This document shows, in pieces, positions 2,274 to 63,687 of a DNA stretch of 64,000 nucleotides. Within the stretch, counting starts at the first letter, position 1. Every line of letters starts with the position of its first letter. The stretch is from a virus (taxonomy: Duplodnaviria > Caudoviricetes): IMG/VR virus record IMGVR_UViG_3300020037_006332, positions 1-64,000 of that record; one strand, written 5' to 3'. The notes below the pieces were generated by a model, which saw only the letters and a program-made list of their open reading frames with translations, did not search any database and was not told the origin of the DNA. The translations under genes and the position numbers were made by a program.

Positions 2274-3331
2274 TAGCCTACAGTCTCCCCGGGCTTGCGG
2301 CGGTTTCGGCCGCCGCCGTTACCCTTACGGCGTTCGGTCTGGCGTTCGTTGAAGTCTCGGCGGTAGTCCCGCGATAGGTCGTTAATCCAGGTCTGGGCCA
2401 TATTGGCCTGGGGGTTTTTCTTGGTTTCGCCCCAAATTAGTTCGTAAAGGGTGGTGACAATCCCGAAGCCCTTCACGAGCACGGTCATAATGTTGATCGC
2501 GTAGCGGCCCAGCGTGTTCCCTAGGTTGCTCATCATGTTTTTGATGGGCTGGATTTCGTCGCGGAACGTGTCCACGGCTCCAACTAGGGCGGTGGCCGAT
2601 TCGCTGGTGGCTCCGGCGGCGGAGTAGTTCCGGCGAACTTGCTTCAGGTTGCTCATGGCGTAGGCTTGGCCAATCGAGCCATTATAGAGCGATAGCGATT
2701 TGTTAGACTCGTAGAGCCCGTCCGCCAGCTTCTTGCCGGCCATCGCCACGCCTACAAATGCCCCGATAACTCCAGCCGGGCCGCTGATGCCGGACTTTAA
2801 GAGGTCCATCGCATTGCCAAGCTGGGGAATCGCATCCTTCAGCCGCTCGGCTTGCTCGGTGTTGTCGGCGGCCTTGTCTTGAGCCTGCTGGGGAGTGATC
2901 TTGCCGCCTAGCAGGTCGCCAAAGGTCTGCCCGTTGTTGGCGGCGGCGGTGGTGACCGGCGGGGGCGGTCCCGGGGGAGCCGGCTGGGACTGGGGCCCCA
3001 TAAACGCCTCGCGTAGGCCCCCCATTGCCCGCTGGGCGAACGTCCGGCGGGGTTTGAGTGGCGTAGGGGGCGGAGCCGGAGCGGGGCCCTGAGCGGACGC
3101 CACGCCTTCAGGCTGGTTAAATCCGGGCTTGGTCCAGTCGGTGATACGGGTGCTGGGGCCGGCTTGGTGCTTACTGAAGCCGCTGGCGGCGGACTTCACT
3201 AGGCTGCCTAGGTCATCGGTTTTGCTGGCGGCGGAGCCGGCGGCCCGGGCGGCCGAACGGGCGGCGACGGCTCGCCCCACTCCGCTGGCGAGTAGCCGCC
3301 CTAACACTCCAAGCAAGACGGGTGCCGGCAT
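2273..3331 (-). CDS. Tape-measure-like protein, unusually short (352 aa)
   Basis: Ala/Gly-rich and helical-looking; directly follows the G/GT chaperone pair. Confidence 0.6.
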   Translation of the reverse strand: MPAPVLLGVLGRLLASGVGRAVAARSAARAAGSAASKTDDLGSLVKSAASGFSKHQAGPSTRITDWTKPGFNQPEGVASAQGPAPAPPPTPLKPRRTFAQRAMGGLREAFMGPQSQPAPPGPPPPVTTAAANNGQTFGDLLGGKITPQQAQDKAADNTEQAERLKDAIPQLGNAMDLLKSGISGPAGVIGAFVGVAMAGKKLADGLYESNKSLSLYNGSIGQAYAMSNLKQVRRNYSAAGATSESATALVGAVDTFRDEIQPIKNMMSNLGNTLGRYAINIMTVLVKGFGIVTTLYELIWGETKKNPQANMAQTWINDLSRDYRRDFNERQTERRKGNGGGRNRRKPGETVG

Positions 3332-3333
3332 GG

Positions 3334-3615
3334 TTATAGCTCACTCTGCTGGCTGGCTTGGTAGCGGTTAATTTCGGCGGCGGCCTGTTCCTCGCTGTCG
3401 GCGAGTGCCTTGATTAGCTCGGGGTTGACGCTGCCGCTCATGGCTTGGGTAATGCCAGATAGCACGGCTGCGGTGCGTCGGGCCTCGGTGCGTTTCATGT
3501 TGAGCCAGAGTCCTACCCGGCATTCGTAGGCTTCGGCTCCGCCAGCGTTCAGCTCGGCCAAGCTGCCGGCTCCGTAGCATCCGGCTAGGTCGGCTGCCCA
3601 CTGCCATTTTTTTTT
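3334..3615 (-). CDS. Tail assembly chaperone GT extension (-1 frame)
   Basis: The -1 frame reads ...QLKKKWQWAADLAG...QSEL* with no good independent start; entered at the A9 slippery run. Confidence 0.7.
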   Translation of the reverse strand, partial: KKKWQWAADLAGCYGAGSLAELNAGGAEAYECRVGLWLNMKRTEARRTAAVLSGITQAMSGSVNPELIKALADSEEQAAAEINRYQASQQSEL

Positions 3616-3932
3616 AAGTTGTCGACGTACAAAACAAAGTCGTTTAGGACGCCAAGGGTTTCCATTTCGGTGAGCCCCTCGGGCGTGTCTTCGGTCCAGG
3701 CCGGGATGCCGAAAATCTCGCGGGTCGCCTGGACGGAAATCTCGCTGGCTTCGGCCTCCAGCTCGGGCTCGCCGCACACCATATCGGCTAGGTGCCGGTC
3801 GACGTCAAACTTGGGATGGGCGGCCATCTTGCGGATGACGGTCACGGGATCGGCGGAGCGTTCGCGGGTGCCGTCGAAATACTTGAAAATCCGCTGGACT
3901 TTCGGGGCTCGATTGCGGCTGAATAATCGCAT
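3585..3932 (-). CDS. Tail assembly chaperone G
   Basis: 115 aa ORF between tail tube and tape measure, ending in a slippery sequence. Confidence 0.75.
   Translation of the reverse strand: MRLFSRNRAPKVQRIFKYFDGTRERSADPVTVIRKMAAHPKFDVDRHLADMVCGEPELEAEASEISVQATREIFGIPAWTEDTPEGLTEMETLGVLNDFVLYVDNLKKNGSGQPT
3607..3617 (-). other. Programmed -1 ribosomal frameshift site (TTA AAA AAA AAT)
   Basis: A AAA AAA heptamer at the 3' end of chaperone G, in the canonical position between tail tube and tape measure. Confidence 0.8.
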
Positions 3933-3945
3933 GGGGGTTAATTTC

Positions 3946-4431
3946 CTAGCTCGCGGTCGTGTTCCAGAGCGTGCCGCCGACGTTCCAGGCGGTGCCTTCC
4001 AGGCGGAGCGTGGAGAACTTCGTGCCGGCGTTCAGCTCGATGGGGTCGCGGAAAATGACGTAAGGGTAGTTGCGGATTAGGTTGGTGTTGGAAACCAGCA
4101 GGCGGAAATACTTATTTCCGGCCAGCATGAGCGTGCCGGCGGTCGGGATGGTGCCGGCGGTGCCGCCCTTGTGCCGGCTGAGTAGTTTCTGGGCGATGGT
4201 GGCGTCCCACTTGGTTAATTCCAGGGTGATCTGGGCCGTCTCGCCCATATACTGGAGGTCGCACCCCGGGCCGGCTTCGCCGCCGTAGTCATCGCATTTG
4301 ACTTCCGCGAAATAGCCGTCGTGGCGGAGGATGACTCCATCCCGGGTATAGCCAAGGTCTTCCAGGGCGTCGGCGGAGCCGGTGCCGACTTTGATCGTCG
4401 ATAGCCCGGCTACTACGATTGCGATGGCCAT
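3946..4431 (-). CDS. Major tail (tube) protein
   Basis: 161 aa; LGYTRDGV and ITLELTKWD tube-like pattern; position. Confidence 0.7.
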   Translation of the reverse strand: MAIAIVVAGLSTIKVGTGSADALEDLGYTRDGVILRHDGYFAEVKCDDYGGEAGPGCDLQYMGETAQITLELTKWDATIAQKLLSRHKGGTAGTIPTAGTLMLAGNKYFRLLVSNTNLIRNYPYVIFRDPIELNAGTKFSTLRLEGTAWNVGGTLWNTTAS

Positions 4432-4919
4432 TATTGCACTCGATATGGGTAGTAGTTGCGGGTCCGGTCACGGATCAGATTGAGCTGCGTGACGGCGGCC
4501 ACGCTGGGGCGGGTTAATTTCGGGGTGCCGGCGTCAATCACTTTGGTGATATTGAAGACGTTTTCCCCCTTCCTCAATCGCTCCAGGTAGAGGTCATGCA
4601 GGTCCATCTGGGCTTTGTAGTCGTCCACTGAGTAGGTTGGTTTGATCGCAAATAGGTAGGCCATTGCGATTTCGCAAACCATATGCTTCAGGTGGGCGGC
4701 TGAATTGCCCGTTAGGGCGGCTAGGTCGCCGGGGTCATACCGGCCAGCCTGGAGTAGTGCGGCGTCGATAGCTCCGCTCGCACTCTCCAAAGCGGCCAGT
4801 ACCTTGTCGTCCGTGGCCAAAGCCCCGGCCGACACGGCGGTGCCGTTCTCACTTACAAGCTGGCCGATGGTCAGCTCGCTTTTGCGTAGCAGTAGATCGG
4901 CCGGGGTAGCGTAAGCCAC
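4431..4919 (-). CDS. Head-tail adaptor, Mu gp36/DUF1320-like
   Basis: MAYATPADL...AALESASGAIDAAL..GRY..L...VCEIA pattern; follows the capsid gene. Confidence 0.8.
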   Translation of the reverse strand: MAYATPADLLLRKSELTIGQLVSENGTAVSAGALATDDKVLAALESASGAIDAALLQAGRYDPGDLAALTGNSAAHLKHMVCEIAMAYLFAIKPTYSVDDYKAQMDLHDLYLERLRKGENVFNITKVIDAGTPKLTRPSVAAVTQLNLIRDRTRNYYPYRVQ

Positions 4920-6476: not shown

Positions 6477-6537
6477 GATTTAGCATCCTTGCTAGTTCGG
6501 TGAGTTTCTTAGTCCCGGGCGGGGGTTAATTTCGGCC

Positions 6538-8115: not shown

Positions 8116-8213
8116 CCGTGGCAGTCCTCGAAACCGGGGTCGATAAACGCGAAAAGCCCACGGGCCGCCGTCTTGGCAGCTCATGGGCTTCTGTGTGTCA
8201 GGTAGCCTAGAGG

Positions 8214-8429
8214 TTAATTTTGGGCGTCTTGCGGGCGGTACTTGGTGACCGAAATACTGGGGTCGCCGAACATACCTTGCAGGATCGGAATCCTAATGGT
8301 TAGCTCGCCACGATGGTCCAGCTTCAGGGCGTCGGTGGCGGCGGCTAGTTCCTCGTGGACCCATTCCAGCCGGTCGCGGTTCCGCTGCTTGACTTTGTAA
8401 GCGTAGCTTTCACGTTCTGGGCGTGTCAA
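8214..8429 (-). CDS. Hypothetical protein
   Basis: Co-oriented small ORF. Confidence 0.4.
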   Translation of the reverse strand: MTRPERESYAYKVKQRNRDRLEWVHEELAAATDALKLDHRGELTIRIPILQGMFGDPSISVTKYRPQDAQN

Positions 8430-8598: not shown

Positions 8599-8658
8599 GT
8601 CTATTTTCTCCGGGGGTTAATTCGCTCGCTATATCATAGCTTCGGCAGCTTGGCGAGT

Positions 8659-10725
8659 CTACTGAATTCTGGCGTAGTAGGCTTTGAATTGTTCGGTTAG
8701 GTGCCGGCGGTACTGTTCCACGGCGTCAATGAGGCCCTGTTTTTCCCAGAATGCGTAGCACTTCGGGAATGCCTTCTTTAGGCCCTCTAGCCCCTTGGTT
8801 ACTCCCCAAAATCCATCTGGCTTTTTGTGCGACCACGGTTCGCCGCCGGCGGCCTCGAAAATGGCCCGGCCAAACTCGGCGAAACCTTCCCACGTGCTTT
8901 GAACGGCGTAAGCCGATAGGGGCACGTCGCTGTCTTTGACTTGCTTCCACCAGTCGCTGCGTCCGCCGCTGTTGTTGGCAATGGTCCGGACGGCACTGGT
9001 TTGGATTTCCTCTAGGAATGCTTCTACCCATTCCTGGTTTTTGGATAGCTCGAATTGGCCGGTCCCTCCGCAGTCCAGGGCGTGGGCAAATTCATGGGCA
9101 TAAATTCCTTCATTGCCGGAGCCGGCGACGTTGTGGATCGTGTTGTCGCCAGCCGCGTAGAATCCGCCCACGGTAAACCCGGCGGGCCTGCCGGTGCGTT
9201 TCTCGAATTCGGCTTGCAGGGACTCCCGGTTAGCGTAGGCTTTCATGCCGCCGGCCGTCCCCTTGGCGATGCGTTCCTTAGCCTTGGCTGAAAACCCACG
9301 CATGGATTTTCGCATTCCGGTTTTGTATTGCTCCGGCTTGCGGCCGTAGTTCGGGGCGTACTCGCCAAGGGCTTCGTTCATTTCCTTTTCAAAGTATTCC
9401 CCTAGGATTCGCTGCGTTTCTAGTGATAGCTCGGCACGCTCACGGGGCTGGTTTATAAAGTTAATTCCCCGGGCGTCGGCGGCGGCGTTGACTATCCTTT
9501 GTTGGATTGTGTTCAGGTTCTCGCCGGTATTGAATGCGGCGTGCAGCATGTCGCCGGTAATGCCTAGCGGGGCTAATTTCTTCACCAGCCCGGGCGAGAT
9601 ATCGACTAGATGGAAAGCATACTTGGGGTCTAGTTTGTAGTCGAACCAATCCCGGCGGCTGACGGTATCGACTAGCTCGTCGGTACTGCTGTCGATGGCG
9701 TCGGCCAGCTTCTCCCCCACGGCGACGCGGCTGGTGCCGGTGCTTTCGTCGAAAAGCGATTGCTGGCCCTTGGCGGCCTTGCGTTTGGGTGCGGCGGATT
9801 CTCCGGGCCCGTCCCCAAACTTTCCATCGGCCGCCCGGGGGTGCTTACTTTCGTCCCACGCATAGCGAAACTGGCGGGCGTAGCGGTAGACGGATTCGGC
9901 TCGGCGGAATCGCTGGGCGTATTGTTCCACGGCGTCCACCAGCCCATGCTTGTGCCAATAGGCGTAGCACTGCGGAAACTGAGTTTTGGCGGCCTCGGGG
10001 TCTTCAAATAAAAGCCGGCCAAACTCGGCGAAACCCTCCTCGGATCGCGTGCAGGCGTAGGCCGATAACGGCACTTCCCACGGCACTAGATCGTGCCACC
10101 AGTTATCGAAATTGCCGGAATTAAAGCCGGCTTCCATTGCGTCCAGGACGGTCTGGTTAATTATCTCGGCTCGCCATGCGTCTTCCCACTCGTTCGTTTG
10201 GGAAAACTCATACCGCTTTCCGTTCCAGTCAATCGCGTGGGCAAACTCGTGGGCGTAGCTCCCGGCCTGACCTTCCGTGGCAATGGTTGCTATGTAGCCC
10301 TTACTGCGGTCAAAAAACCCCATCACGCCTGCGTTTTCGGGGAGCCCTGACGCTACCGAAATTTCGGCGGAATCTTCGTAAGCCTCGAATCCATTGGGGC
10401 ACGAATTGCTAATCCGCTCGATGGCCTTGCGGCTGAATCGGTCCAGCACGCTGGCCATCTGCTGGCGGTACGCCTTGACGTTATCCCGGGATAAAAACGC
10501 CTTGCTTTCTTGCCCCGGGAAAGTCTTTAGCTTGTGGGATTGCCGTAGCCGTTCCTCGATGCTCTGGCGGTGGTCGGTTGGTTCAGGGGCCGATGGTTCG
10601 GCTCCGCCGCCCTCGCCAAACTTCCCGTCTTCGGCCCTCGGGTGCTTACTTTCGTCCCACTGGGCGGCGTAGCGGTCCAGGTAGGTGAATTCGGCGAATG
10701 CCAGCCGGTAGGCTAGGTCGTTCAT
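8659..10725 (-). CDS. Putative internal virion protein with two zincin (HEFAH...EGFAE) metallopeptidase-like domains
   Basis: Start re-assigned to MNDLAY (10725). Two HEFAH motifs, each with a downstream LSAYA..EGFAEF; two WDESKHPR motifs. Confidence 0.75.
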   Translation of the reverse strand: MNDLAYRLAFAEFTYLDRYAAQWDESKHPRAEDGKFGEGGGAEPSAPEPTDHRQSIEERLRQSHKLKTFPGQESKAFLSRDNVKAYRQQMASVLDRFSRKAIERISNSCPNGFEAYEDSAEISVASGLPENAGVMGFFDRSKGYIATIATEGQAGSYAHEFAHAIDWNGKRYEFSQTNEWEDAWRAEIINQTVLDAMEAGFNSGNFDNWWHDLVPWEVPLSAYACTRSEEGFAEFGRLLFEDPEAAKTQFPQCYAYWHKHGLVDAVEQYAQRFRRAESVYRYARQFRYAWDESKHPRAADGKFGDGPGESAAPKRKAAKGQQSLFDESTGTSRVAVGEKLADAIDSSTDELVDTVSRRDWFDYKLDPKYAFHLVDISPGLVKKLAPLGITGDMLHAAFNTGENLNTIQQRIVNAAADARGINFINQPRERAELSLETQRILGEYFEKEMNEALGEYAPNYGRKPEQYKTGMRKSMRGFSAKAKERIAKGTAGGMKAYANRESLQAEFEKRTGRPAGFTVGGFYAAGDNTIHNVAGSGNEGIYAHEFAHALDCGGTGQFELSKNQEWVEAFLEEIQTSAVRTIANNSGGRSDWWKQVKDSDVPLSAYAVQSTWEGFAEFGRAIFEAAGGEPWSHKKPDGFWGVTKGLEGLKKAFPKCYAFWEKQGLIDAVEQYRRHLTEQFKAYYARIQ

Positions 10726-10778
10726 GGTGGCATCCTTGCCAGTGGTGGGAATCCCGCTGGCCCATGATACCAAACCGG

Positions 10779-11087
10779 CTAGCGGTTGGTAAACGTCTTG
10801 CCGCGTTTCTTGACTTTGCTGGGGGCTAATTCCTTGGCTGTGGCGGTGCTTTGGCGGATGATCTTGCGGGTGAGCCGGTCCAGCCGCTCGGCTTCGGTTT
10901 CCGGGGCTCGGGGCGGATCGACGGCCCGATAGCGGAGCATGCAACCGGCCCACGGGAATTGCTGGTTGAATCGCACGGCGGGGCGGTTCAGGCGTTCCAG
11001 GTGCGAATCTCGAAGTTCGCGGGTCGGGTAGCTCTTGAACGTCCGCCAGCCGGCTTTTTCGTCGAAGATTTCAATGCTAAAGTTCAT
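10779..11087 (-). CDS. Hypothetical protein
   Basis: Start MNFSIEIF coupled to the upstream ORF. Confidence 0.5.
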   Translation of the reverse strand: MNFSIEIFDEKAGWRTFKSYPTRELRDSHLERLNRPAVRFNQQFPWAGCMLRYRAVDPPRAPETEAERLDRLTRKIIRQSTATAKELAPSKVKKRGKTFTNR

Positions 11088-11337: not shown

Positions 11338-11358
11338 CGCGGGTTAATTCCGGGGGTG

Positions 11359-11443: not shown

Positions 11444-11471
11444 ACTATAGCGAGCGGTTTTGGCTTGTCAA
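11444..11471 (-). promoter_or_regulatory. Sigma70-like promoter with TAYAGCGAGCG operator
   Basis: TTGACA-N16-TATAGT with CGCTCGC adjoining the -10. Confidence 0.7.
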
Positions 11472-14400
11472 GCGTACCGCCAGCGGGGCCGGTAGTAGCG
11501 TTCCACGCTGCCGCTGGCGGCGTTGCGGGCTTGGAGGTCTTTTAGGTGCGGGAAGTCTTTGAGGATTTCCTGGGGGATGGTGCCGCCCTGGGCGATGTGG
11601 TCCTTCATGGCGGCCACGTAGTCGCGGTTCGCCTGCTGGACGTCGTAGTCCCCTTTCTTGCCGGCTTTCTGTAGGTGGTGCCACTGGGCCCTGGTGAATC
11701 CCCATTCGTTGGCTGGTCGGCCGCCGCCGGACTTGGGTGGCTCGGGTTTCTTGGGCGGTTCCGGGTCTTTGGGCTCGGGGGTCTTCGCTTCGGGCTGGTT
11801 GGGCTTGCTTTCTTCGGCGGCCTGCTGGGCTTTGCCGATTAGGCCATGCTTCTGCCAAAACGCATAGCACTTGGGGAATTTCTCTTTGGCTAGTTCCTCG
11901 TTCTCGAAAATAAAACGGGCATATTCCGCAAACCCCTCTGAGGCGTTTTTGTTGGCGTATTCGGAAAGTCGGTAGCCATGCTGGCGGCTATATTTGATTT
12001 CATCCTGGTACGCGACTTGCCACTGCGTATCGCTGGATAATTTCGATTCGCTGTAGCGGAATTTAGCATCTAGGATATGGGCTTTCCGCTCCCACGCATC
12101 GCGGTCAAAGTCGATGGCGTGGCCCAGCTCGTGGGCCAGAATCGACGCGGGCCCCATGTCTCCCATGTCCTTTTCGAGTGGCACCACTAGCTCGCCCTTT
12201 TGGCCTGCGAAATAGCCGCCAATGCGGCTGTTTTGCGTGTTGATACGCTGGCGGCTGGCGGCTGCGTAGGCCCGGGTCACTGACAGCGTATCGCTGTGGA
12301 CTTCGATTTTTTGGACGGATTTGCTAATCCGCTCGGCGGATTTCGGGGAGAACGTATTGAGGACGGCCCGGACGGATGCGTTAAAGCCTTGCATTTGCTC
12401 CGGCTTGGCTTTGAAAGCCACCATTTTGCCGGACTGATTGGCCATTTTCTTGACGTCGCCGGGGTTAATTTTGGCGAATGCGGCGGCCACGGTTTTGCGG
12501 AATGGATTATCTGCCGGGTCTTCTTCTTCCGGTTCTGGTTCGGGCTCGGGTGCTTTGGGCGGCTCGGGCTTCTCGGGTGGGCCATCGAATAGCCCCTTCT
12601 GCCCCTTGCTGGGCTTTACCCGGACGTCTTCGGTAGTCGCTCCGCCGCCCTCGCCAAACTTCCCGTCGGCCGCTCGGGGGTGTTTACTTTCGTCCCATTC
12701 GTAGCGGGCCACGTCGCCCCGGCGGGCAAACGGCACGGCGTCCAGTTCCTCGGGGGTGGCGTCGTGCTCGCCCCAGTCTTCCCAGCCGCCGCCCTCGCCT
12801 TCCGGGGCCATCCCGGATTTATTGGCGTTGTACAAGATTTCGGCGGCTTGGCGGATTAGCTTGGGGTCGGTTTTGCTAGGCTTTTCGGGCGGGTTGCGGA
12901 GTAAATCCCAAAGCCGGCCGGCTAGGTCTTCATCGTCGGCATTGGCCCCGCCTTCGTAGCCCCGGCCGATGCCCAGCTCGGGAATGCTGCTGGCCAGCCG
13001 GCGGGCGATATCGTCCAGGCCGGGGACGCTGGCGGCGTCGCCGCCGGTGTTCTCCAGGTGGGCTAGTTGCTTTGGGGTTAGGCCGGTTTGCTTGCGGGCT
13101 TCGGCGATAGCGTCCAGGGTGGGCTGGTAGGCTTCGGCCTTTTCCTGGTAAACGTGGTCCAGGGTTTTGGCTAATTCTTCCGGGTCGACGCCCCAGTCTT
13201 CGGCCTCACGGGCGACTAGCTGGTTCGATAGGTCATCCACCTTTTGGCCACGCATCCGCTCACGCGGGGCCTGGGCGTTGGCGGGCTGCTGGTCGGTGTG
13301 TTTGACGTTGCCGATCTTGGCATTGTTGCGGGCTAGGTATTTCTTGGCCCGGGCGGTCATTTCGTCCTGAATCGCCTTGCGGACGGTGGGGTCGCTGGCG
13401 ATGCCCGGGGCGAGATAGACGTCGGCGTCAATCTTCCCAGTCTGGCCGGTGGCCCGTTTCATTTCAAACGCCCCGGCGACCTTGCTGTCGTGGATCACGG
13501 TGACGGTGACCGTGCCGGTGGCCTTGTCGGTCTTAATGCCCACCTGAAGGGCCTTGCGGACTTGGCTGGCGGTGCCGGCCGTCGGCTTCGGTTTCTCGGG
13601 GGCGGGCTGGGCCTGCCGGGTTTTAGATTCCGCGATAGCGGCCCTGGCTTCGGCCAGTAGGTCCTGCTTCCGCTTGATATCGGCGTCCAGCTTGCTGGGT
13701 TTCTTGCCGGCCTTTCCTTTGGGCTCGGGCTGCTTCTTGTTGATGCTGCTGACGTTCTGGCCGGTTAAATTCTTGGGTCCGGCGTGGATATGGCCGTTGT
13801 CGTCAATCAGCACGGGGGTGCCGCCGTCGCCCTCGTGGGCCCCGATGGTGACCCAGCGGGCGTAACGTAGGATTTTCCCGGGGCGGCGGTTGCGTTCGGT
13901 GTCTGCCTGACGCATCGAAGCCAGAGAAGCCCGGTTCTCGGCTAGGACATTTTCCAGGGCGGCAATCTGTTTCTTGAGCTGCTTCTGCTCTTTTGCGTTC
14001 AGGGTCGGGAGCATGGCCGCCCCACGCTCTAGGGCTTCCTCTAGCTGGCTGTTTTGCTTTTCAAGGTGGGCAATATCTTTGGCAAAGCCGGTTGGCTCGG
14101 CCTTCTCGGCCGGGGCAAAGTCAGCCCGGACGTCTTCCGGGAGTTCAATTCCGTCGTGCTTCGCGTCGCTGATAGCCCCGACGTGCTGGCGATAAGTCGG
14201 TGTGTCAATCTCGTGGCTGCCAATCATCTTATCGACGTCCAGGCTAGAGATATCCAGCCACCCTTGCTTGCCTCCCACAAAGATTTGCAGGCCGTTGCCG
14301 TGGGCCCGGATATGGGCCGGATCGGCGAGCGGCGTGGCTCGCATTTGCGTGGTGTGGTAAACAGTTTCGCCGGATTTGATTTTCTCGGCGATGGCCTTGG

Positions 14401-16354: not shown

Positions 16355-16393
16355 ATTCGCATCCTTGCGGTGGGCTGCTAAAATCGGGCCATC

Positions 16394-50061: not shown

Positions 50062-50084
50062 ATGGGTGGCCTCCCGTGGTCCAA

Positions 50085-50122
50085 CAAAAACGCCCCCGGG
50101 CACGGTCTTGTGCTCCGGGGGC
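50085..50122 (-). terminator. Intrinsic terminator
   Basis: GCCCCCGG(A/G)GCAC hairpin followed by a T-run on the minus strand. Confidence 0.65.
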
Positions 50123-50174
50123 ATGATCTTGGCGAAGTGCCGTGGTCACTGTCAAGCTACTGCGAGCGTACCCG

Positions 50175-50687: not shown

Positions 50688-50747
50688 AGCGGTAAACTCC
50701 AGTTTTGGTTAAATCCGTTCGGGTTGAAAATGTCCGCCCAGCGGACA

Positions 50748-51866: not shown

Positions 51867-52019
51867 GGGTTTCCTTTTCTGCGGCGTCTGCGGCCATTAG
51901 CGATAGCTTGGCGTAGAGCTGGGCTAGCGGCCTGACTTCTGGGTAGTCTTTTCCGTAAACGGCTTCTAGGGCTTCCAGCAGGATTCTGATTTCTTCGCAC
52001 GATAGCACTGTCGAATCTC

Positions 52020-52970
52020 CTACTCTAGTGCCTTTAGTATTTTCTTGGTCGCGGACTCGCCGACTTTCCGAAGCGTGCGAATCGACTTAGGGGCCACGGT
52101 GAAACCGGCCCGGTCGCTGGTCTTCCAGGCGTAGAGCGAGCCATCCGGGAGCCGGGCGTAGGTGTTATCCCCTAGGGCGGCCTTGACGGTGTTCTCGAAT
52201 AGCTCGATATCCTTTTCCAGCTCTTTGATCTGGGCCCGGGCCTCGTCGGCCTTGCTGGCCATATCGGCCGGGATGCTGGTCACTTCTACCAGTAGCCCGT
52301 TATCGCGGGGGTGCAGTTGGGTTAAAACTCGGCTGGTTAATTCGCTGTCATCGGCCGGCGGCATTTTGTTGTTTTGAACATACCACCAGAATTTTGCGGC
52401 CGATTCCAGCATGGCCTCGATAAACTCGTCGTCCCGCTGGACGTCGTACCAGACTAGCCGCTGGCCTCCGATCAAGGCGGCGAGCGTGCCCCACGTGCAT
52501 CCCGTGCAAGCCAGTTCGGCCTGCACTTGGATTTGATACTGGAGCGGGATGCTGGCTTCCTCCTTCCAGTGCTTGCCCATCATTTCGTTGGTGGTCTTCA
52601 CTTGCAGCACGCCGACTAGCGGGTTCGGCTCGATTTGCTGCCATGCGTCCGGGGTACAGCCCAGAAATGGGTAGTCCGGGTGCTGGTGCACGGTGAACGG
52701 CGGGGCGGCCTGGACTAGCCGGCCCGTCCGCTCGGCAAACTCGTCGATGATCGGGCCCTCGAATCGTTGCCCCCAGCGGATACGCTCGTGGAGGGCGGCT
52801 AGGTCTTCGGCCGGCAGGTTGCCGGTCTTCTCGGCCCAAACGGCGACGGGGCTTTTCCAGGGTGAAAACCCTAGGGCGGCGGCGATATCACTGGCCCCTA
52901 GTAGACTGCGGCGGGCCAGCAGCCACGCCTCGCGGCTACTGTAGGCGGTTGGTGCGGGGTGGCGTGTCAT
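52020..52970 (-). CDS. YqaJ-like viral recombinase/exonuclease
   Basis: WL..RR..LGASD, WG..FE, TPD, QVKT, YQIQVQ. Confidence 0.88.
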   Translation of the reverse strand: MTRHPAPTAYSSREAWLLARRSLLGASDIAAALGFSPWKSPVAVWAEKTGNLPAEDLAALHERIRWGQRFEGPIIDEFAERTGRLVQAAPPFTVHQHPDYPFLGCTPDAWQQIEPNPLVGVLQVKTTNEMMGKHWKEEASIPLQYQIQVQAELACTGCTWGTLAALIGGQRLVWYDVQRDDEFIEAMLESAAKFWWYVQNNKMPPADDSELTSRVLTQLHPRDNGLLVEVTSIPADMASKADEARAQIKELEKDIELFENTVKAALGDNTYARLPDGSLYAWKTSDRAGFTVAPKSIRTLRKVGESATKKILKALE

Positions 52971-53445
52971 CGTCTTTCTGGTCCTGGAGGGCGTCGGTTA
53001 ATTCCTTCATCAGCTCGCGGATCGCGTCTTTGCTCTCGGGGAGCCCTTTGGTCACAATCGGGAAAATCGCGTCTTGCATGGCGTGCATAAGCGTGTTCGT
53101 CATGCGGTTGCAATCGTCGATGGCGTCGTCGCCGGAGCACTTCACTTCGGCCATGAGCCGGGCGGCGGTGCGTAGCAGGGCCCGGACCATTGCCGCCGAG
53201 TGGTTGGTGAACCGTAGGCTAGTGGCCTTGATATCGTCCATGCTCGTGGTTTCCGGGTCGGGTAGTCCGTCGGGGAATGCGTTGGCGGTTAAATACCCGT
53301 TGGCGGCCTCGATTATGAAATCGAATGCCTTTTTCTCCAGGGCGATAACCTGGAGCATTTCCGGCATCTTTTCCTGGGCCTCGGCCTTGGTGGCCTTTTC
53401 GCGGATCGAGTCTGAGAAGTCTTTCCAAAAATCTTCGGGCTTCAT
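52936..53445 (-). CDS. Hypothetical protein
   Basis: Co-oriented ORF. Confidence 0.55.
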   Translation of the reverse strand: MKPEDFWKDFSDSIREKATKAEAQEKMPEMLQVIALEKKAFDFIIEAANGYLTANAFPDGLPDPETTSMDDIKATSLRFTNHSAAMVRALLRTAARLMAEVKCSGDDAIDDCNRMTNTLMHAMQDAIFPIVTKGLPESKDAIRELMKELTDALQDQKDDDTPPRTNRLQ

Positions 53446-53456: not shown

Positions 53457-53750
53457 CTAGGTTAATTTTGCGAGTGCGGTGCGGGGTCGGGTGTAGTACA
53501 CAAACCCGGCGATTTCGATGCCGTTCGGGTGCAGTATGTAGGGCGTTCCTGGCCAGTGGGTGCGGTGCATGTGTAGGGGCCCCCAGTGCTTGGTGGCGGC
53601 CCGGCCTACTATGGATTCTTCGGCGGCCCGGGCTCGCCAGCCGTCACGGTTTGCTCGGCGGATGGTGGTGGTAAACTCGCCAGTTATCTCAGTGGGCTCG
53701 TGGGTGGCCCACTCGAAAACCATGTCCTGGGGTGTGATTTCAGGCGGCAT
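53457..53750 (-). CDS. Small protein, N-tag family
   Basis: MPPEITPQDMVFEW; directly downstream of csrA. Confidence 0.55.
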   Translation of the reverse strand: MPPEITPQDMVFEWATHEPTEITGEFTTTIRRANRDGWRARAAEESIVGRAATKHWGPLHMHRTHWPGTPYILHPNGIEIAGFVYYTRPRTALAKLT

Positions 53751-53922
53751 TGACCTTGGCCTCTGCGGCTAGTCGGGCCTTAACTTCGCTGCGGTGCACG
53801 GTGACGTCGCGGGGGGCCTCGATGCCCAGCTTAACGCGGCCGTCGCGGGCCTCCAGGACGCGGATCACGATGTTCTCGCCGACAATCACGTCTTCGCCAT
53901 TCTTCCGGGTTAAAACCAGCAT
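53740..53922 (-). CDS. csrA: Carbon storage regulator CsrA/RsmA homolog (60 aa)
   Basis: MLVLTRKNGEDVIVGENIVIRVLEARDGRVKLGIEAPRDVTVHRSEV; AAGGA RBS. Confidence 0.95.
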   Translation of the reverse strand: MLVLTRKNGEDVIVGENIVIRVLEARDGRVKLGIEAPRDVTVHRSEVKARLAAEAKVNAA

Positions 53923-54025: not shown

Positions 54026-55450
54026 TTACGAAGTTCCGCCAGCACGTTTGTCGGGGAGCATTTCGACCACCTGAATCCAGGCCGGGATTTTTCCCTGCTT
54101 GGGGCGGGTGAGGCAAGCCACGACCGGGATGCCGACGTCCTGGTCGGGCCAGCCGGTGTAGCCGTCGGTGCAGACTAGGATTACCTGTGGCTTTTTGCGG
54201 CCCCCCTTGCCACCCCGTAGGATTTCCTCGTCGGTCGCGGCCTGGATGATGGCCCGGCTCATGTCGGTGCCGCCGCCGCCCATCACTTCCAGGGTTTCCG
54301 GGCGGAGCACGGTTTGCACGCTAGCGGCGGACGTGTCCGCACAAACCACCTTAATGCCATCCCGGCAGCGGTAGGCGTCCAGGACTTGTCCGATCATGCC
54401 CAGCGATAGCGAAATATCGGCGTGGTCCATGCTGCCGCTGGTGTCCACGATCACGGTCACGCGGGGCACGGGCTGGACGTTGCTCGGCAGCAGAATATCG
54501 GTCCGTGGGTTGCGGCGGTTCGGGCGGCGGTAGCTGTAGTCCCCCTGGCCTTGCGTGACTTCCACGCAATGGCGGACGGCTCGCCGGAGAATCGTGCGGG
54601 GGTCGACCTTGGGCTCGATTAGCTCCCTGGCCCACGCTCGCATTCTGCCGGCCATCTTGCCTACCCGCTTTTCGTGCTCCAGGATTTTTTCGGCAATCTC
54701 GCGGCGGATCATTTCTTGTTCGGCGTCGTCCAGGCCGTGGCGGCCGTCCCCGTCTGGTCCGTCGCTGCCTTCCTCGGTGCCGTGCTGCTCCCATTCCTTG
54801 GGGATACCATCGCACGCGGAGCCGGCCAGCGATGGATCAAACTTGCCTTGTCCCTTGCCTTTGCCCTGTTTGTCCCCGGGTTGGCCTTCGCCGTCCCCGT
54901 CCCCGGGTTGGCCTTCGCCGTCCCCGTCCCCGTCTTCATCGCCGTCCCCGCCTTCGCTCTCGGGCGGCATCATTTTTCGCAGTTCGTAGTCGTAGAAATC
55001 GGCGGTTTCTTCTTCGACTAGGCCGTAGTCGGCCGGCTTGTGGGCGTCTTCCGGGAGACTCACGCCGGAGGCCAGCAGGTTGCTGTTCGCGGCCAGCTCA
55101 CTGGCCAGTTGCCAGCGTTTCATGTCCGACTTTTTGGGATTGCTGCCCAAAATTTGGGCCCCACGCTTGGGATGGCGAAATAGCAGGCGGGCCACGTCTC
55201 GCAAGATCATGCCGGCCACGTCGTCGGTGCGGGCGGCCTTGATGGCCTCGGGATTGAAGTGTAGCCGCCAAGTGCTGTCACAAGCCACGGGCCCCGGGAG
55301 CCGGGGGTTTTCCACGGCCATCAGGGTTAAAATCATATAGGTCGCGTAGGGCCATTTTTGACAAGCCAAAATGCGAGCCTTGACTAGCTCCTGGCACTGG
55401 TGTCGGCCGGGGCGGCTGGTGCCGCCCTGGCTAATCGCTTGCGTGGTCAT
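54026..55450 (-). CDS. DUF2201-like protein: peptidase-like N-terminal domain plus vWA domain
   Basis: MIDAS VDTSGSM, GGGGTDM, TDGY; N-terminal PGPVACDSTWRLHFNP. Confidence 0.8.
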   Translation of the reverse strand: MTTQAISQGGTSRPGRHQCQELVKARILACQKWPYATYMILTLMAVENPRLPGPVACDSTWRLHFNPEAIKAARTDDVAGMILRDVARLLFRHPKRGAQILGSNPKKSDMKRWQLASELAANSNLLASGVSLPEDAHKPADYGLVEEETADFYDYELRKMMPPESEGGDGDEDGDGDGEGQPGDGDGEGQPGDKQGKGKGQGKFDPSLAGSACDGIPKEWEQHGTEEGSDGPDGDGRHGLDDAEQEMIRREIAEKILEHEKRVGKMAGRMRAWARELIEPKVDPRTILRRAVRHCVEVTQGQGDYSYRRPNRRNPRTDILLPSNVQPVPRVTVIVDTSGSMDHADISLSLGMIGQVLDAYRCRDGIKVVCADTSAASVQTVLRPETLEVMGGGGTDMSRAIIQAATDEEILRGGKGGRKKPQVILVCTDGYTGWPDQDVGIPVVACLTRPKQGKIPAWIQVVEMLPDKRAGGTS

Positions 55451-55538: not shown

Positions 55539-55934
55539 CTATCGGGCCGGGGCGATGCTCAGATTGAGCCTTTCCACGCTCATGCCTAGGTCACGCATCA
55601 CGGCGGCTAGCCGGTCTTCCTGGGCGGCCAGCCTGGCCTCCAGCTCGGCGACGCGGGTTTCCAGCTCGGCGGTCGCGGCGGAGCCGTGACGGGCCCGGGG
55701 GCGGGTGTACTGCTCGGGGTCGATAGTCTGGAGGTCTTTCAAGACGCCCCGGATCATAGCCGGGGTGATTCGGCTCGCGTCTTTCAGGGCGGGAATCTTG
55801 ATAGCGTTGACCAGCTCGGCCAGCTCGCCGTCGCCCATCCCCTTGGCGACAATCCAGTCCTGCCAGTTAGCTTTCATGGTGTCCATGAGGCTGATGGCGT
55901 GGACGCGGTTAAATTTGTGGGTTCTCTTGGCCAT
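55539..55934 (-). CDS. Hypothetical protein with C-terminal coiled coil
   Basis: AAGGA RBS. Confidence 0.6.
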   Translation of the reverse strand: MAKRTHKFNRVHAISLMDTMKANWQDWIVAKGMGDGELAELVNAIKIPALKDASRITPAMIRGVLKDLQTIDPEQYTRPRARHGSAATAELETRVAELEARLAAQEDRLAAVMRDLGMSVERLNLSIAPAR

Positions 55935-56050
55935 TGCAAGGTTTCCTTTTGCTTGCGATTTCAGGTGGTTAAAACAAGCCGCCGGGCTAGGTACTAGGAT
56001 TGCTAGAGTGAATCCATCCTAGCCCGGGCGGCCCGTGACAAGGGCGGGAG

Positions 56051-57157: not shown

Positions 57158-57254
57158 GCGATTTTTTTCCTTCTGTTGAGTCTGAAAATCCGTAGGTTAA
57201 AAATGCCTTCTCTGTCCGGCCACGTGGGGTCCGTTTCACTTCCTTCTGGGCCTG

Positions 57255-58384: not shown

Positions 58385-58410
58385 CCGGCCCGGGGTTAAT
58401 TCCGGGCCGG
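58385..58410. terminator. Perfect 9-bp hairpin with GGTTAATT loop
   Basis: CCGGCCCGG-GGTTAATT-CCGGGCCGG. Confidence 0.5.
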
Positions 58411-58839: not shown

Positions 58840-58958
58840 CCCCAGAAATAAATAATTTCCGAAATGGCTCGATAGCGGGGGGTTCCTCGCGGGGTCGGGT
58901 TAAAAACGCTAGCCGGTAGCCCCCACGGTTTCCCGTGGGGGTTGGCCGGGCAGCGTTC

Positions 58959-60199: not shown

Positions 60200-60247
60200 T
60201 GGGTGTCCGTAAGTCGCCCCAAAATCGCACTCGCCAAGGAAATTGCA

Positions 60248-60760
60248 ATGATTGCCGTCCCTCGCAAGGATCGCCGCCCCCGGCTCGAACGTATTACCGA
60301 AGCGGTTAAAAACAGCACTGGCGGGGAGCTGCCGCCGGAGGTCGTGGGCCAGCTTGCGGAAGCGATTGATAAGATGGTCCCGGCGGGCTACGATCTGCAC
60401 AAACTCAAGGCCACGACGGTTGATATTGCCGATTCCCTGGAGGGGGTGGCGGTCGCCGATATGGCCCGGATTTTGAATGCCACCATGAAATGCCTGGGGA
60501 TGGTGCTGCCGAAAATCGCCAATAGCTCGGCGGTCTACAGCACGGTTTGCGACGTGGCTCGGCGGAAAGTCGAGAAACTCCACGCCAAACTGGGCAGCAA
60601 AACCTACCTGGAAACCATGAATGCCTGCCTTGAGAAAACCCCCGATGGGGCCTCGCCTGAAAACGTCGCCCTCATGCTCACGCAATGCTACCTTCTCGAA
60701 ATGGAACGGCTCGCGGCGGTCGCGGTCCAGGCCAGCAAGAAACCGGCCGATAAAGGTTAA
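60248..60760 (+). CDS. Plus-strand hypothetical protein, candidate regulator
   Basis: AAGGA RBS before ATG 60248; helical. Confidence 0.65.
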   Translation: MIAVPRKDRRPRLERITEAVKNSTGGELPPEVVGQLAEAIDKMVPAGYDLHKLKATTVDIADSLEGVAVADMARILNATMKCLGMVLPKIANSSAVYSTVCDVARRKVEKLHAKLGSKTYLETMNACLEKTPDGASPENVALMLTQCYLLEMERLAAVAVQASKKPADKG

Positions 60761-60791
60761 TTTTACGGCGGCTAGGATGCCGTTGATAGGG

Positions 60792-61331: not shown

Positions 61332-62441
61332 TTACACGAAATTCGCGTCCGGCGGGGCCGGGTCCACGGCGTAGGCCATCGCCTGATTCTGGGCGTTGAA
61401 CGGGCAGCGTTCGCATCCCGTGGCGTCAAAGTCGGCCATCCCGGCCTGAGACTCTTTCCAGAGGTCGCGGAAGCGTTTCCCTTCCAGGCTGCCAATCAGC
61501 CCGGAATCGTTGTAGGCCAGCGTGCAGCAGCGGTATACGTTCAGGTCGCCGCCGACATAGGTGTTAGCCTGTTGATACCAGCAGCGGTGGTAGTCGGGGC
61601 GGCCTTGCTGGAGGTCACTGTAGCGGCTACCGAAGTTATTCAGCACGGCAAACGTGCCGGGGACGTCGCGGGTTTGGGCGGCCTCTAGTAGCTCGTGGAT
61701 TTCGTCTAGCAGGCCAGCGTAGTATTGAGCCCCGTCGGGCTGGAAATAGGCCCCCAGCCGGATATTGTCGGCCCCGGCCTCTTTGGCTCGGTCGACGGCC
61801 AGCAGGATTTCGCGGTAGTTTTCGCGGGTGACCACGAAGCTAACCCCTAGGCGGAGTTTGGTCCCCATGCCGTTTTTCTTGTCGGCCAGCATGGCCACGT
61901 TCCGCCAAGCGGCCTCGAAGTGTTGGGTGCTGACGTTGCGGGTCACGGCGTAGGTTTCGGGCTTCCCGGCGTCGATGCTGACGCGGACCCACTTGGCAAA
62001 AACTAGGGCCTGGAGCGTGTCGGCATTCCAGCGGACCCCATTCGAGACTAGGGCTAGGTCCATATTGCGATGGTGCACGGCCTCGAAAATCTCGACGTGG
62101 TGCGGGTGCACGGTAGGCTCGCCGCCGCCGGTGATCTGGATCGCTTTGACCCCCATTTGCTGGCAGTCTTCCAGGATTTCGATAACCTTGCCTAGCGGGA
62201 TTTTCCGGTTGGGGTTATTGTTGACCACGCCGAAAGCGTTGGTTTCCCCGAAGCGTTGATTAGAGCTGTAGCCGGGCATTCGGAAAGCACAGAATCCGCA
62301 GCTTTGGTTGCAGAGGTCGCTGATAACTAGCTGGACTTGCACGGGGGCGGCGGTCTTGCCGGCTCGCCATGCCTTCACGCGGTCGGGGTGGTGGATGATC
62401 TTTAGCGGCGAGTAGGGGCTGGCCGGGTGAGGTCGTTCCAT
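61332..62441 (-). CDS. Radical SAM/SPASM-type protein
   Basis: CNQSCGFC, GGGEPT, C-terminal Cys cluster. Confidence 0.9.
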   Translation of the reverse strand: MERPHPASPYSPLKIIHHPDRVKAWRAGKTAAPVQVQLVISDLCNQSCGFCAFRMPGYSSNQRFGETNAFGVVNNNPNRKIPLGKVIEILEDCQQMGVKAIQITGGGEPTVHPHHVEIFEAVHHRNMDLALVSNGVRWNADTLQALVFAKWVRVSIDAGKPETYAVTRNVSTQHFEAAWRNVAMLADKKNGMGTKLRLGVSFVVTRENYREILLAVDRAKEAGADNIRLGAYFQPDGAQYYAGLLDEIHELLEAAQTRDVPGTFAVLNNFGSRYSDLQQGRPDYHRCWYQQANTYVGGDLNVYRCCTLAYNDSGLIGSLEGKRFRDLWKESQAGMADFDATGCERCPFNAQNQAMAYAVDPAPPDANFV

Positions 62442-63169
62442 TGCTTACGCTCCATCGCTTGTAGGATTGTGGCCGTCCTGGCGTCCTGTTTGGCGGTTAA
62501 TTTTCCACGCTTGGCGACGGGCTTATACATGGTCGCGGCGAGTTCATACCAGCCGGTATCTGTGGGGCCTCGATTGCAGTTTTGGCCGTGGGCGTAGCCG
62601 GTATGCCAGCCCATCACGTAGCTGCAAGTTTCGGGGGTCGGGCAGGGGTCGCCGATGCTGGCGGCTTCCCGGCTGAGTCGGCCGATAAGCTGGAGGTCGA
62701 AATCGGCTTGGTCGGTGACCGGCCAGCCGCCTACCCGCTGGATTAGCTCTTTGCGGAATGCCAGCGACGAATGGAAGCGGGGGCCGGCGGTTTCGGCCTG
62801 GAGCTGGCCCGGGCCCGGGTAGTCGGTCAAGATCGTGCTAGGCTTCGATAGCTCGTGGGTCTGGAGTTGCTCGACGTGCTGGCTGATGTAGGTCGGGCAA
62901 TAAATGTCGTCGTCTTCCCAAACCAGATACGCCTGATTCCGTAGCGGGGCGACGCATCGCATGAAATTGTACTTGGACGGTAGGCTCGGGAATCGCTCCG
63001 TGCTGAATAGCCGCCAGTTGGGCCCCTGCTGGTCGTCGAACGTGCCGCCGTCGTCGTGGATGATTAGATAGCGTTGGTCGGCCGGATAGTCCTGCTGGTC
63101 CCAGAGCCAGAGGGTATTTTCTAGCAGGTCCGGGTGGCGGAACGTGGGGCACAGTGCGGTTATAAACAT
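62402..63169 (-). CDS. GT-A (GT2-like) glycosyltransferase
   Basis: ALCPTF, IHDDG, WEDDDIY. Confidence 0.8.
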   Translation of the reverse strand: MFITALCPTFRHPDLLENTLWLWDQQDYPADQRYLIIHDDGGTFDDQQGPNWRLFSTERFPSLPSKYNFMRCVAPLRNQAYLVWEDDDIYCPTYISQHVEQLQTHELSKPSTILTDYPGPGQLQAETAGPRFHSSLAFRKELIQRVGGWPVTDQADFDLQLIGRLSREAASIGDPCPTPETCSYVMGWHTGYAHGQNCNRGPTDTGWYELAATMYKPVAKRGKLTAKQDARTATILQAMERKQWNDLTRPAPTRR

Positions 63170-63687
63170 AGCCGTTCCAGGATCGTTAGGCCGTAGTTAT
63201 TGGTGAAGTGCTCGATAATCCGAAATTCCCCGGCGGCAATAAGTTCCCCGATGGCTTTCCACATGCTGGTTTCGTGGCTGCCGCAAACCGGGTGCGTGTC
63301 GTGCAGGGCGATATACTTGCTGACCTTGGGGGCGTGGCGGGTTAATTCTCGGGCTAGATGATCGTAGCTATGGTCGCTGTCGATAAATAGCAGGTCCGTG
63401 GGCTCGATGTCGATTTCGGCGGAGTTGGCTTGGTAGAAAACGAAATTCGTTTCCGGGCCCACCAGCTTTTGCAGCTCGACAATTACTGGGCAGGGCATGA
63501 TATCGACGCTGGTGAGCCGGCGGGGCTCGGCGGCCAGAAATGCCGTGGTGGAGTTGCCGGTGCGGACGCCAAACTCGGTGATCGTCTGGCACTTGCAGGC
63601 CAGCCGGTGTAGGGTTTCCAGGTGCTCGTTAATTTCTCCCGGGCGGGCAATGAGTAGCCGGAGCCGGTTTTCTAGGGCTTGGTTCAT
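63160..63687 (-). CDS. Class I SAM-dependent methyltransferase (Methyltransf_24-like)
   Basis: EFGVRTGNST, LFIDSDHSY, LHDT. Confidence 0.85.
   Translation of the reverse strand: MNQALENRLRLLIARPGEINEHLETLHRLACKCQTITEFGVRTGNSTTAFLAAEPRRLTSVDIMPCPVIVELQKLVGPETNFVFYQANSAEIDIEPTDLLFIDSDHSYDHLARELTRHAPKVSKYIALHDTHPVCGSHETSMWKAIGELIAAGEFRIIEHFTNNYGLTILERLCL

Follow-up and report, generated by a model that had tools for sequence, protein, structure and literature searches.

The window analysed here comprises the first 64 kb of one virus contig of 72,560 bp (G000; IMG/VR record IMGVR_UViG_3300020037_006332, Caudoviricetes), and the element under study is a short word, GGTTAAWW with the core GGTTAA, that recurs along one of its strands. 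The two ends of the contig overlap imperfectly, positions 1–490 of the window matching contig positions 71758–72250 (about 490 bp with 11 mismatches). Because the ends repeat each other, the genome is taken to be circular or terminally redundant with a length of about 71.7 kb, and the 11 mismatches mark the assembly as one built from two close variants. The guanine–cytosine (GC) content of the window is 61%. A codon-usage gene finder placed about 83 genes on the minus strand and two small open reading frames (ORFs) on the plus strand, with 97% of the genes lying on one strand. The head genes comprise an intein-interrupted large terminase, a Mu-type portal fused to extra modules and a major head protein; a CsrA gene is also present. 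The genome has no tRNA genes, and scans of about 75 ORFs with Pfam, PHROG and NCBIfam, which left many proteins without an assignment, recognised no polymerase, helicase or primase.

An earlier reading of the window by eye (the original prediction) had reported about 60 plus-strand copies of GGTTAAWW and no plus-strand TTAACC. Exact counting gave 61 copies on the plus strand and none on the minus strand, every coordinate that had been listed proved correct, and over the whole contig the core GGTTAA stands at 74:0 (plus:minus), TTAACC being absent from the plus strand. The original prediction had expected about one copy per strand at roughly 63% GC (the content is 61%); dinucleotide shuffles of the window yielded 4.46 ± 2.19 copies of GGTTAAWW on both strands summed (maximum 10). 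Markov models place the expected number of GGTTAA on the plus strand at 16 (order 1), 9 (order 2) or 24 (order 3), and the commonest octamer, GGTTAATT, was seen 37 times against 0.7 expected under the order 2 model. The word tops the ranking of over-represented words at k = 6, 7 and 8. Within genes, 46 copies were found compared with 12.9 ± 3.2 after synonymous-codon shuffling and 9.6 ± 3.0 after codon permutation, so codon and dinucleotide models are inadequate; the synonymous-codon null is conservative, because it retains those TTA codons that owe their existence to the word. Neither strand parity nor an enrichment explained by codon or dinucleotide usage was thus found. The shuffles and Markov counts exclude chance and the dinucleotide, Markov and codon models, and codon-pair preference is excluded by the occurrence of the word in two frames, at stop codons and between genes. 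A sequencing or assembly artefact is likewise excluded, as JGI and Logan assemblies carry the word independently, at differing positions and with intact proteins. The absence of GGTTAA from the minus strand is by itself a weak sign of avoidance, because only about 3–5 copies are expected there.

The form of the word is strict. The core is followed by TT at 37 sites, by AA at 20 and by AT at 15, and never by TA, for which about 10 copies were expected. After these two tail letters come T, C or A and then C or T, and no letters are conserved upstream (5') of the GG. The word is therefore GGTT plus an A-tract without a TpA step. Variants of the GGTTAA core with one mismatch occur near expectation, which makes the site as sharply defined as Chi or the target of an enzyme, in contrast to a binding motif with graded variants. 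The CtrA half-site TTAACCAT and the consensus sites of IHF and Fis were considered and dropped as the flanks do not fit, and a literature search on the word itself returned nothing relevant.

The 74 sites of the contig are distributed over several contexts: 32 are read as TTA-ACC (Leu-Thr) and 16 as xTT-AAC-C, 16 lie between genes, eight form the TAA stop codons of minus-strand genes, and the plus-strand gene described below holds one internally and one at its stop. TTA makes up 85 of the 1,579 Leu codons, ACC is the next codon in 31 of these 85, and 31 of the 126 Leu-Thr pairs are spelled TTAACC. In alignable relatives, the word falls at variable protein positions and sometimes alters residues, the terminase having Ile-Asn-Gln at a site where relatives have Val-Tyr-His or Val-Glu-Gln. 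Given the two frames, the stop codons, the intergenic sites, the excess over codon shuffles and the changed residues, selection on the word acts on DNA and not on protein, in agreement with the original prediction.

All sites in the window lie on the plus strand. Those read in the frame that places Asn at the centre are, in minus-strand genes or ORFs, a core with the variant tail GA at 1667–1674 (gene 507–2273, xTT-AAC-C), GGTTAAAT at 3115–3122 (gene 2273–3331), and GGTTAATT at 3366–3373 (ORF 3334–3777), 10155–10162 (gene 8659–10953), and 12463–12470 and 14695–14702, both in the portal-fusion gene (11468–16414). Leu-Thr is encoded by GGTTAATT at 4213–4220 (gene 3946–4431; missing from the sister genome introduced below), 4512–4519 (gene 4431–4919; Val-Asp or Val-Ala in relatives), 24085–24092 (gene 23476–24588), 32582–32589 (gene 32459–32668), 34155–34162 (GHKL-ATPase gene), 35932–35939 (gene 35857–36219), 40670–40677 (subtilase gene), 46097–46104 (gene 45677–46159) and 48150–48157 (gene 47868–48716). 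The same frame is used by GGTTAAAT at 13763–13770 and 14849–14856 in the portal-fusion gene, the latter being GGTTAG in the sister genome, and at 41267–41274 in the subtilase gene, as well as by GGTTAAAA at 25397–25404 (gene 25316–25585) and 41788–41795 (gene 41737–41910). Further copies inside minus-strand genes are GGTTAATT at 18644–18651 (gene 18330–18662), 20521–20528 (the large terminase, Ile-Asn-Gln), 38814–38821 and 39333–39340 (both in gene 38710–39768) and 50888–50895 (RecT); a core with the variant tail AC at 18985–18992 (gene 18659–18997); and GGTTAAAA at 35693–35700 (ORF 35408–36196), 53908–53915 (CsrA) and 55325–55332 (a VWA/DUF2201 gene). The YqaJ gene carries a pair spaced 15 bp apart, GGTTAAAA at 52320–52327 and GGTTAATT at 52335–52342, and this pair (52320–52342) is kept as a pair in the sister genome (L006, 1205/1220; 1205–1227).

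TAA stops of minus-strand genes are formed by GGTTAATT at 8212–8219 (gene 8214–8429), 23474–23481 (gene 23476–24588, where the site overlaps the start region of the next gene) and 44353–44360 (gene 44355–44597), by GGTTAAAT at 25613–25620 (gene 25615–27552), and by GGTTAAAA at 18328–18335 (gene 18330–18662), 28535–28542 (gene 28537–29490), 37909–37916 (the DNA methylase gene, 37911–38777), 45675–45682 (gene 45677–46159, 1 nucleotide ahead of the next ATG) and 48718–48725 (the replication-initiator gene, where the site sits between a Shine-Dalgarno sequence and the next ATG). Between genes lie GGTTAATT at 3936–3943 and 11342–11349 (4 and 5 nucleotides, respectively, ahead of a minus-strand start codon), 6524–6531, 8615–8622 (adjoining a TATAGCGAGCG box), 31944–31951 and 36239–36246, GGTTAAAT at 34963–34970 and 50707–50714, and GGTTAAAA at 30453–30460, 42162–42169, 55967–55974 (missing from the sister genome), 57195–57202 and 58898–58905. 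The remaining copies in the window are GGTTAATT at 52996–53003 (missing from the sister genome), 53460–53467, 62495–62502 and 63340–63347, and GGTTAAAT at 53287–53294 and 55907–55914. Two copies of GGTTAATT occupy the loops of perfect hairpins, as the original prediction had noted: one at 29917–29924 with an 11-bp stem, next to a run of T on the minus strand and hence terminator-like, and one at 58394–58401 with a 9-bp stem. A general association with hairpins was rejected, since control positions have stems at least as long as those beside the word and these two are the only good hairpins.

Site density along the genome is roughly uniform, long genes carrying about one internal copy per kb. 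The spacing of about 1 kb, which the original prediction had called regular, is mildly so and more even than random (coefficient of variation 0.75, P = 0.006), with two gaps below 100 bp where 7 were expected. Of the 74 sites, 58 overlap coding sequence or stop codons. The density between genes is about twice that within them, and 23 of the 74 copies lie within 50 nucleotides upstream of a start codon compared with 4.2 ± 2.0 expected. Several of these fall between a Shine-Dalgarno sequence and the ATG. As the distances range over 2–48 nucleotides with none preferred, the excess near start codons is read as placement at the lowest protein cost.

The polarity of the word is set by the genome and not by transcription. 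The sole well-supported gene on the plus strand (60203–60760) has an ortholog in the sister genome, P0122, whose predicted strand is the same, and substitutions between the two are concentrated at third positions (82 versus 44 and 37), with no such concentration in the overlapping minus-strand frame; the gene is therefore real. It contains GGTTAAAA at 60304–60311, which is missing from the sister genome, and its TAA stop lies in GGTTAATT at 60755–60762, which is conserved at position 10493 of L006. Both stand in the orientation of the genome, as had been predicted, rather than in that of the gene, and the flipped word occurs in this region of neither genome. This observation rests on two or three sites and favours genome over transcript polarity by about 100:1 if about one site per kb is assumed in either model. 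No sign change of word polarity or of GC skew was detected anywhere in the genome, including the putative origin near 49 kb (about 49.1 kb), at which the original prediction had suggested looking for one. The switch of polarity at an origin or terminus that characterises FtsK-orienting polar sequences (KOPS) is accordingly not seen for this word.

Transcription signals are separate from it. Host-type promoters of the genome have TTGACA or TTTACA, a spacer of 16–17 bp and TATAAT or TATAGT, and are built around TAYAGCGAGCG, so the word was excluded as a promoter. It was also excluded as a TTA feature linked to tRNA, given the lack of tRNA genes, and as a known RNA family, there being no Rfam match. 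The TAYAGCGAGCG box is present in 14 copies (window positions 8633, 11446, 20035, 23650, 30782, 32796, 44326, 47858, 55504, 57257, 58837, 59754, 60150 and 60197). In either orientation it forms part of sigma-70-like minus-strand promoters, overlapping the −35 (TTTACA) or the −10 (TATAGT) element, and two copies stand in the divergent region beside the plus-strand gene. The box has the appearance of an operator incorporated into promoters.

A sister genome, JGI Ga0558126_02847 (71,249 bp), has a capsid protein 98% identical to that of the phage and about 84% nucleotide identity overall; comparisons with it cover 37 kb of its length. In these 37 kb the word stands at 47:0 on the same strand. Alignable sites number 28 common to both genomes, 12 in the sister only and 9 in G000 only, which corresponds to a site conservation of 70–76% (28/37–40) compared with 44% for random hexamers (P = 1e-3 and 1e-4). 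Many of the 21 lineage-specific sites are 2–5 bases away from the word in the other genome, and because such differences exceed simple decay, sites have been gained as well as lost. The aligned sequences fit selection on density together with moderate selection on individual sites. Conservation in relatives, which the original prediction had proposed to examine, thus holds for the sister and stops there: in about 95 more distant loci from IMG/VR, metagenomes and metagenome-assembled genomes (MAGs), with capsid identities of 37–71%, neither enrichment of the word nor a comparably strong word was found. With only 0–7 copies at these loci, whichever orientation is counted, the word is confined to the clade of the phage and its sister. 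Some of the relatives over-represent single palindromes (L007, L008, L115 and L001), with CTGCAG at 14–18 versus 1–2 expected, CTCGAG at 47 versus 12 and GATATC at 13 versus 2, and modest one-strand words also occur among them, namely AGGCCCTC at 14:1 (L078), CCTCCAGC at 9:0 (L054) and GCGTGACA (L043, L048).

No nucleotide or capsid-protein match to the phage was found in 50,697 phage records, and no close relatives in phage records or IMG/VR. Its nearest capsid relatives in bacterial genomes are in Planctomycetota MAGs, relatives L155–L162 being located in MAGs of Pirellulales, Pirellulaceae and Planctomycetaceae. Two of the capsid relatives are embedded in contigs of 328 kb and 1.1 Mb and are thus true prophages. 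As the nearest capsid relatives, two of them prophages, lie in Planctomycetota MAGs, the host is probably a planctomycete, and judged by capsid similarity the head type belongs to a family of Planctomycetota phages and prophages. In five Planctomycetota genomes with related prophages, the word occurs 27–251 times per 5–7 Mb, equally on both strands and no more often than a control word. The lack of enrichment rules the word out as a Chi, KOPS or uptake sequence of those five genomes, which may not include the true host. Its density in the phage is more than 20 times that of these candidate host-phylum genomes.

The strand that bears the word also differs in composition. At fourfold-degenerate sites on the coding strand, the phage and its sister (L003, L006) have 54–57% C and 27% G, a skew of −0.34, whereas relatives L001 and L002 have about 40–45% C and 34–38% G, with skews of −0.07 and −0.09, and the whole-locus GC skew of the clade lies nearly 4 standard deviations outside 86 relatives. 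In plus-strand genes, the preference for C over G is gone in the phage (74:74) and reversed in the sister (60:116), which makes the skew at least partly a property of the strand and not of codon choice. The G/T-rich, word-bearing strand may be read as a signature of single-stranded exposure and would fit one-directional replication; that no gradient of strand skew is seen along the genome is a caution for this replication reading. Restriction-site avoidance may in addition distort the codon choice behind the skew. Such avoidance is extreme: GCGC occurs 0 times against about 380–800 expected in G000, nor is it seen in the 37 kb of sister sequence. Of the 64 six-base palindromes, 28 are missing, including CCGCGG, GGATCC, CTGCAG, CTCGAG, GAGCTC, CAGCTG, CCATGG, CGATCG, TCGCGA and GTTAAC. 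Both strands also lack the Type IIS-like words CTCTTC/GAAGAG, GAGGTG/CACCTC and GGTCTC. Certain other palindromes are in excess (GCCGGC 141, CGGCCG 116, TGGCCA 66, CCTAGG 47), and relatives avoid other words (in L001, GATC occurs once versus 65 expected). Leu codons are odd for a GC content of 61%, as CTA accounts for 378 of the 1,579 Leu codons in minus-strand genes, often as GCC-CTA-G, and CGCCCTAG stands at 19:0 by strand. CTG-ACC makes up 3 of the 126 Leu-Thr pairs, though CTG and ACC are the commonest codons, and GCCGAGC is distributed 57:0 by strand.

Several minus-strand genes encode proteins that could act on DNA. RecT annealase and YqaJ exonuclease (50748–52970) form the phage's own recombination module, which is adjoined by an HNH endonuclease (49477–50124; Pfam HNH, 4.6e-12), here considered as a candidate nickase only. 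A beta-class N6/N4 DNA methylase (37911–38777; Pfam, 3.8e-38), a candidate one-strand modifier only, belongs to a widespread phage family, with 46–50% identity in unrelated phages and distant similarity to M.MboIIA, DpnA and CcrM. A gene pair encoding a ParB-like protein and a GHKL (MORC/MutL-like) ATPase (32829–34940) is a candidate DNA-handling module only, and the polarity of the word is constant across the gene for the replication initiation protein (48720–49604). Searches for orthologs of the methylase and the HNH protein in four long related viral contigs and one MAG gave weak domain-level matches only. Comparison of the initiator and two unknown proteins with solved structures returned no match; structure models of the DUF6011 and DUF6744 proteins were unusable (predicted local distance difference test scores of 41 and 44), and protein-atlas look-ups for these two gave only the DUF families already assigned. 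In the large terminase (20057–22540), a Pfam Intein_splicing domain lies between the N-terminal region and the Terminase_6N domain, and a 183-residue ORF at 21499–22050 runs on the strand opposite to this intein-bearing gene. Accessory genes unusual in a phage (window 38710–41689 and 61332–62441; contig 64863–66803) encode a MauG-like di-haem cytochrome c peroxidase, a subtilase, a radical-SAM/SPASM enzyme, a class I methyltransferase and a 647-residue family-2 glycosyltransferase. No close ortholog of the subtilase exists in the sister genome, and it is on other phage-sized contigs that its best relatives (about 50% identity) are located.

Taken together, the facts call for a reader of a strict asymmetric site of 8–10 bp that is sensitive to orientation genome-wide, for which coverage at about one site per kb is useful, and which is specific to the lineage. 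We tentatively propose, as a possibility argued from analogy, that the word is the target of a strand-specific enzyme encoded by the phage, most likely a site-specific nickase as in coliphage T5 and the tf-like Pseudomonas phages (tf and about 60 relatives). Nicking, the closest documented precedent for the word, is not among the readings offered by the original prediction. The enzyme would recognise GGTTAA followed by TT, AA or AT and act on the word-bearing strand alone, leaving single-strand interruptions in the mature DNA; restriction of the word to one strand would keep the opposite strand continuous, and the word would be written about once per kb wherever proteins tolerate it. We infer each of these components, namely an enzyme that reads the word, its nicking chemistry and the HNH protein (49477–50124) as that enzyme, and the location of the HNH gene beside RecT and YqaJ makes its product a possible nickase.

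Site-specific nicking is placed first because the nick-site motif of the tf-like phages and T5 is the best documented match. The nicks of T5 likewise lie on one strand. In phage Rembedalsseter, WACTRTGAC occurs 13 times, all on one strand and each at a physical nick, and across 61 tf-like phages the motif is about 13-fold enriched and mostly inside genes, the physical nicks having been shown by nanopore coverage (PMC11780129). Like these motifs (WACTRTGAC / TACTRTGMC in tf), the word studied here is a strict asymmetric word (8–9 bp in the known cases) confined to one strand, in the phage (74:0) as in its sister (47:0), enriched more than 10-fold throughout its clade and not outside it, and located mostly in genes regardless of frame. 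As with those motifs, its purpose is unexplained (PMC11780129; PMC3517423). The word is unrelated to WACTRTGAC, however, and the phage lineage is unrelated too, with no nucleotide or capsid-protein match in the 50,697 phage records; copies are spread evenly round the genome rather than bunched at one end. Several points weigh against nicking. The density of the word, about 1/kb compared with 0.2–0.3/kb, is about 3.5 times that in tf-like phages, and the HNH family is widespread and often serves packaging or recombination. If both members of the conserved pair at 52320 and 52335 were nicked, a short oligonucleotide would be released, given their distance of 15 bp. Some 70 nicks would have no evident use, the function of the nicks being unexplained even in T5 and tf, and a replication signal would account for the even spacing and the skewed strand composition no less well.

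One such signal would be a start site for complementary-(lagging-)strand synthesis, read by a primase on a displaced or single-stranded strand during one-directional (rolling-circle or strand-displacement) replication, which we regard as unlikely. The word would then work like the primase sites of T7, such as 5'-GGGTC-3', and on 5'-GGTTA-3' a primer would begin with AACC. In its favour are the spacing of about 1 kb, the single polarity round the whole circle, the G/T-rich word strand (GC skew of +0.34 in both genomes versus 0.07–0.09 in relatives) and the lost or reversed preference for C in plus-strand genes, which points to a strand effect resembling that of long single-stranded exposure. 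The form also resembles that of the T7 gp4 sites, 5'-(G/T)(G/T)GTC-3', which are short template words with 5' G residues on one strand at Okazaki-scale spacing. T7 encodes its primase, however, whereas only an initiator protein is recognisable here; T7 primase sites are, to our knowledge, not confined to one strand genome-wide, and host DnaG-type primases need merely a trinucleotide. The ban on TpA in the tail suggests readout of double-helix shape and not of a single strand, and the skew, besides lacking a gradient, is possibly in part a side effect of the restriction-site avoidance. We also consider, with considerable doubt, that the word is a private strand-specific replication code, recently arisen in one phage lineage, which marks the strand that is single-stranded in one-directional replication. 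DNA synthesis would start at the word, through priming specified by its sequence or through strand displacement that is primed by nicks and coupled to HNH, YqaJ and RecT, and the same change in replication style would have produced the strand composition of the lineage. Quite unlikely is a polar Chi-like signal that tames a helicase-nuclease or marks recombination hotspots, whether for host RecBCD/AddAB or for the phage HNH-YqaJ-RecT proteins, and that would thereby shield the tails of rolling-circle replication, or packaging ends accessible from a single side. A strict octamer selected for density, with individual positions turning over and a single genome-wide polarity, is what such a signal would look like, but known Chi words are G-rich and not A/T tracts, and no phage-encoded helicase-nuclease was found in the genome. 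Precedent exists in phages saturated with Chi in one orientation, with 20:3 in coliphage LLS and 32:0 in Pseudomonas phage MD8, the latter carrying 32 copies of GCTGGCGC that all point one way (PMC12315714). Those phages carry the Chi of their host, where it is common, their sites cluster near one end, and they typically have no recombination module (PMC12315714), whereas the word is at or below control levels in the five candidate host-phylum genomes and the phage encodes RecT and YqaJ. The same facts, together with the constant polarity, tell against the host Chi- or KOPS-like signal that is among the readings of the original prediction.

It seems rather improbable to us that the word is a polar site at which a protein acting directionally on double-stranded DNA binds or loads. 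Candidates for such a protein include the terminase, for which the word would provide many co-oriented packaging starts and mark phage DNA as self, a sliding ParB/GHKL clamp, and a one-way roadblock to forks or polymerases in the manner of Tus-Ter or the stoperators of mycobacteriophage L5. GGTT with an A-tract free of TpA looks like a site for combined base and groove-shape readout of the duplex; the more than 20-fold higher density in the phage than in candidate host-phylum genomes means that the word could mark phage DNA as self, the ParB-like and GHKL ATPase genes adjoin each other, and the intergenic density is twice that within genes. Yet the word lacks the graded series of variants that is usual for protein binding sites, and we know of no terminase or ParB that uses some 70 dispersed asymmetric sites. 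The stoperators of L5 and other cluster A phages are, like the word, dozens of dispersed copies of one asymmetric site, but they are intergenic and oriented with transcription, whereas 58 of the 74 copies here overlap coding sequence or stops and those in the plus-strand gene are unflipped; a stoperator-like role fits the separate TAYAGCGAGCG box better. One-strand base modification, such as N6-adenine methylation by the small beta-class methylase of the phage, is very unlikely in our estimate. Beta-class enzymes such as M.MboIIA, to which this protein is distantly similar, methylate asymmetric sites on one strand, and the word is sharp and asymmetric with methylatable adenines. A role as methylation target would, however, account neither for a 10- to 50-fold enrichment nor for even spacing, the family is not special to the clade as it is found in unrelated phages, and the genome relies on wholesale avoidance of restriction sites. 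Type III restriction evasion, exemplified by the 36 EcoP15I sites (CAGCAG) of T7 in one orientation, offers a similar picture of an asymmetric hexamer on one strand only in a genome otherwise purged of restriction sites, but it explains only the missing orientation and not the 10- to 50-fold enrichment, the use of a rare codon or the even spacing. DNA uptake sequences (DUS/USS) are abundant in the host and occur in both orientations, unlike a word found in one orientation and rare in candidate host-phylum genomes. It is highly improbable that the word acts in RNA, transcription or translation, as a promoter, pause, processing site or translation enhancer that appears polar because 97% of genes share a strand. 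The excess upstream of start codons, the copies between Shine-Dalgarno sequence and ATG and the two hairpin-loop copies, one of them terminator-like, would suit such a role, although the first is expected from free placement in unconstrained DNA. The plus-strand gene keeps the orientation of the genome in both phages, long genes carry about one internal copy per kb, the consensus promoters are separate elements and Rfam holds no match, all of which argue for a signal in DNA.

One-strand words in phages are known as nick sites or as borrowed host Chi sites, and their purpose is largely unexplained. The case described here adds a new word in a new lineage and combines high density, even spacing, recent origin and an accompanying shift in strand composition. 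At about one copy per kb, 74:0 by strand and evenly spaced, the word is among the densest and cleanest one-strand cases, and the narrow lineage in which it arose permits comparison with close and distant relatives. A strict and rare word of this kind could also mark the lineage in metagenomes. The phage group is tied to Planctomycetota, about whose phages almost nothing is known, and the reader of the word, if found, would reveal the reason for DNA nicking in some phages or the means by which a phage marks one strand for replication or packaging.

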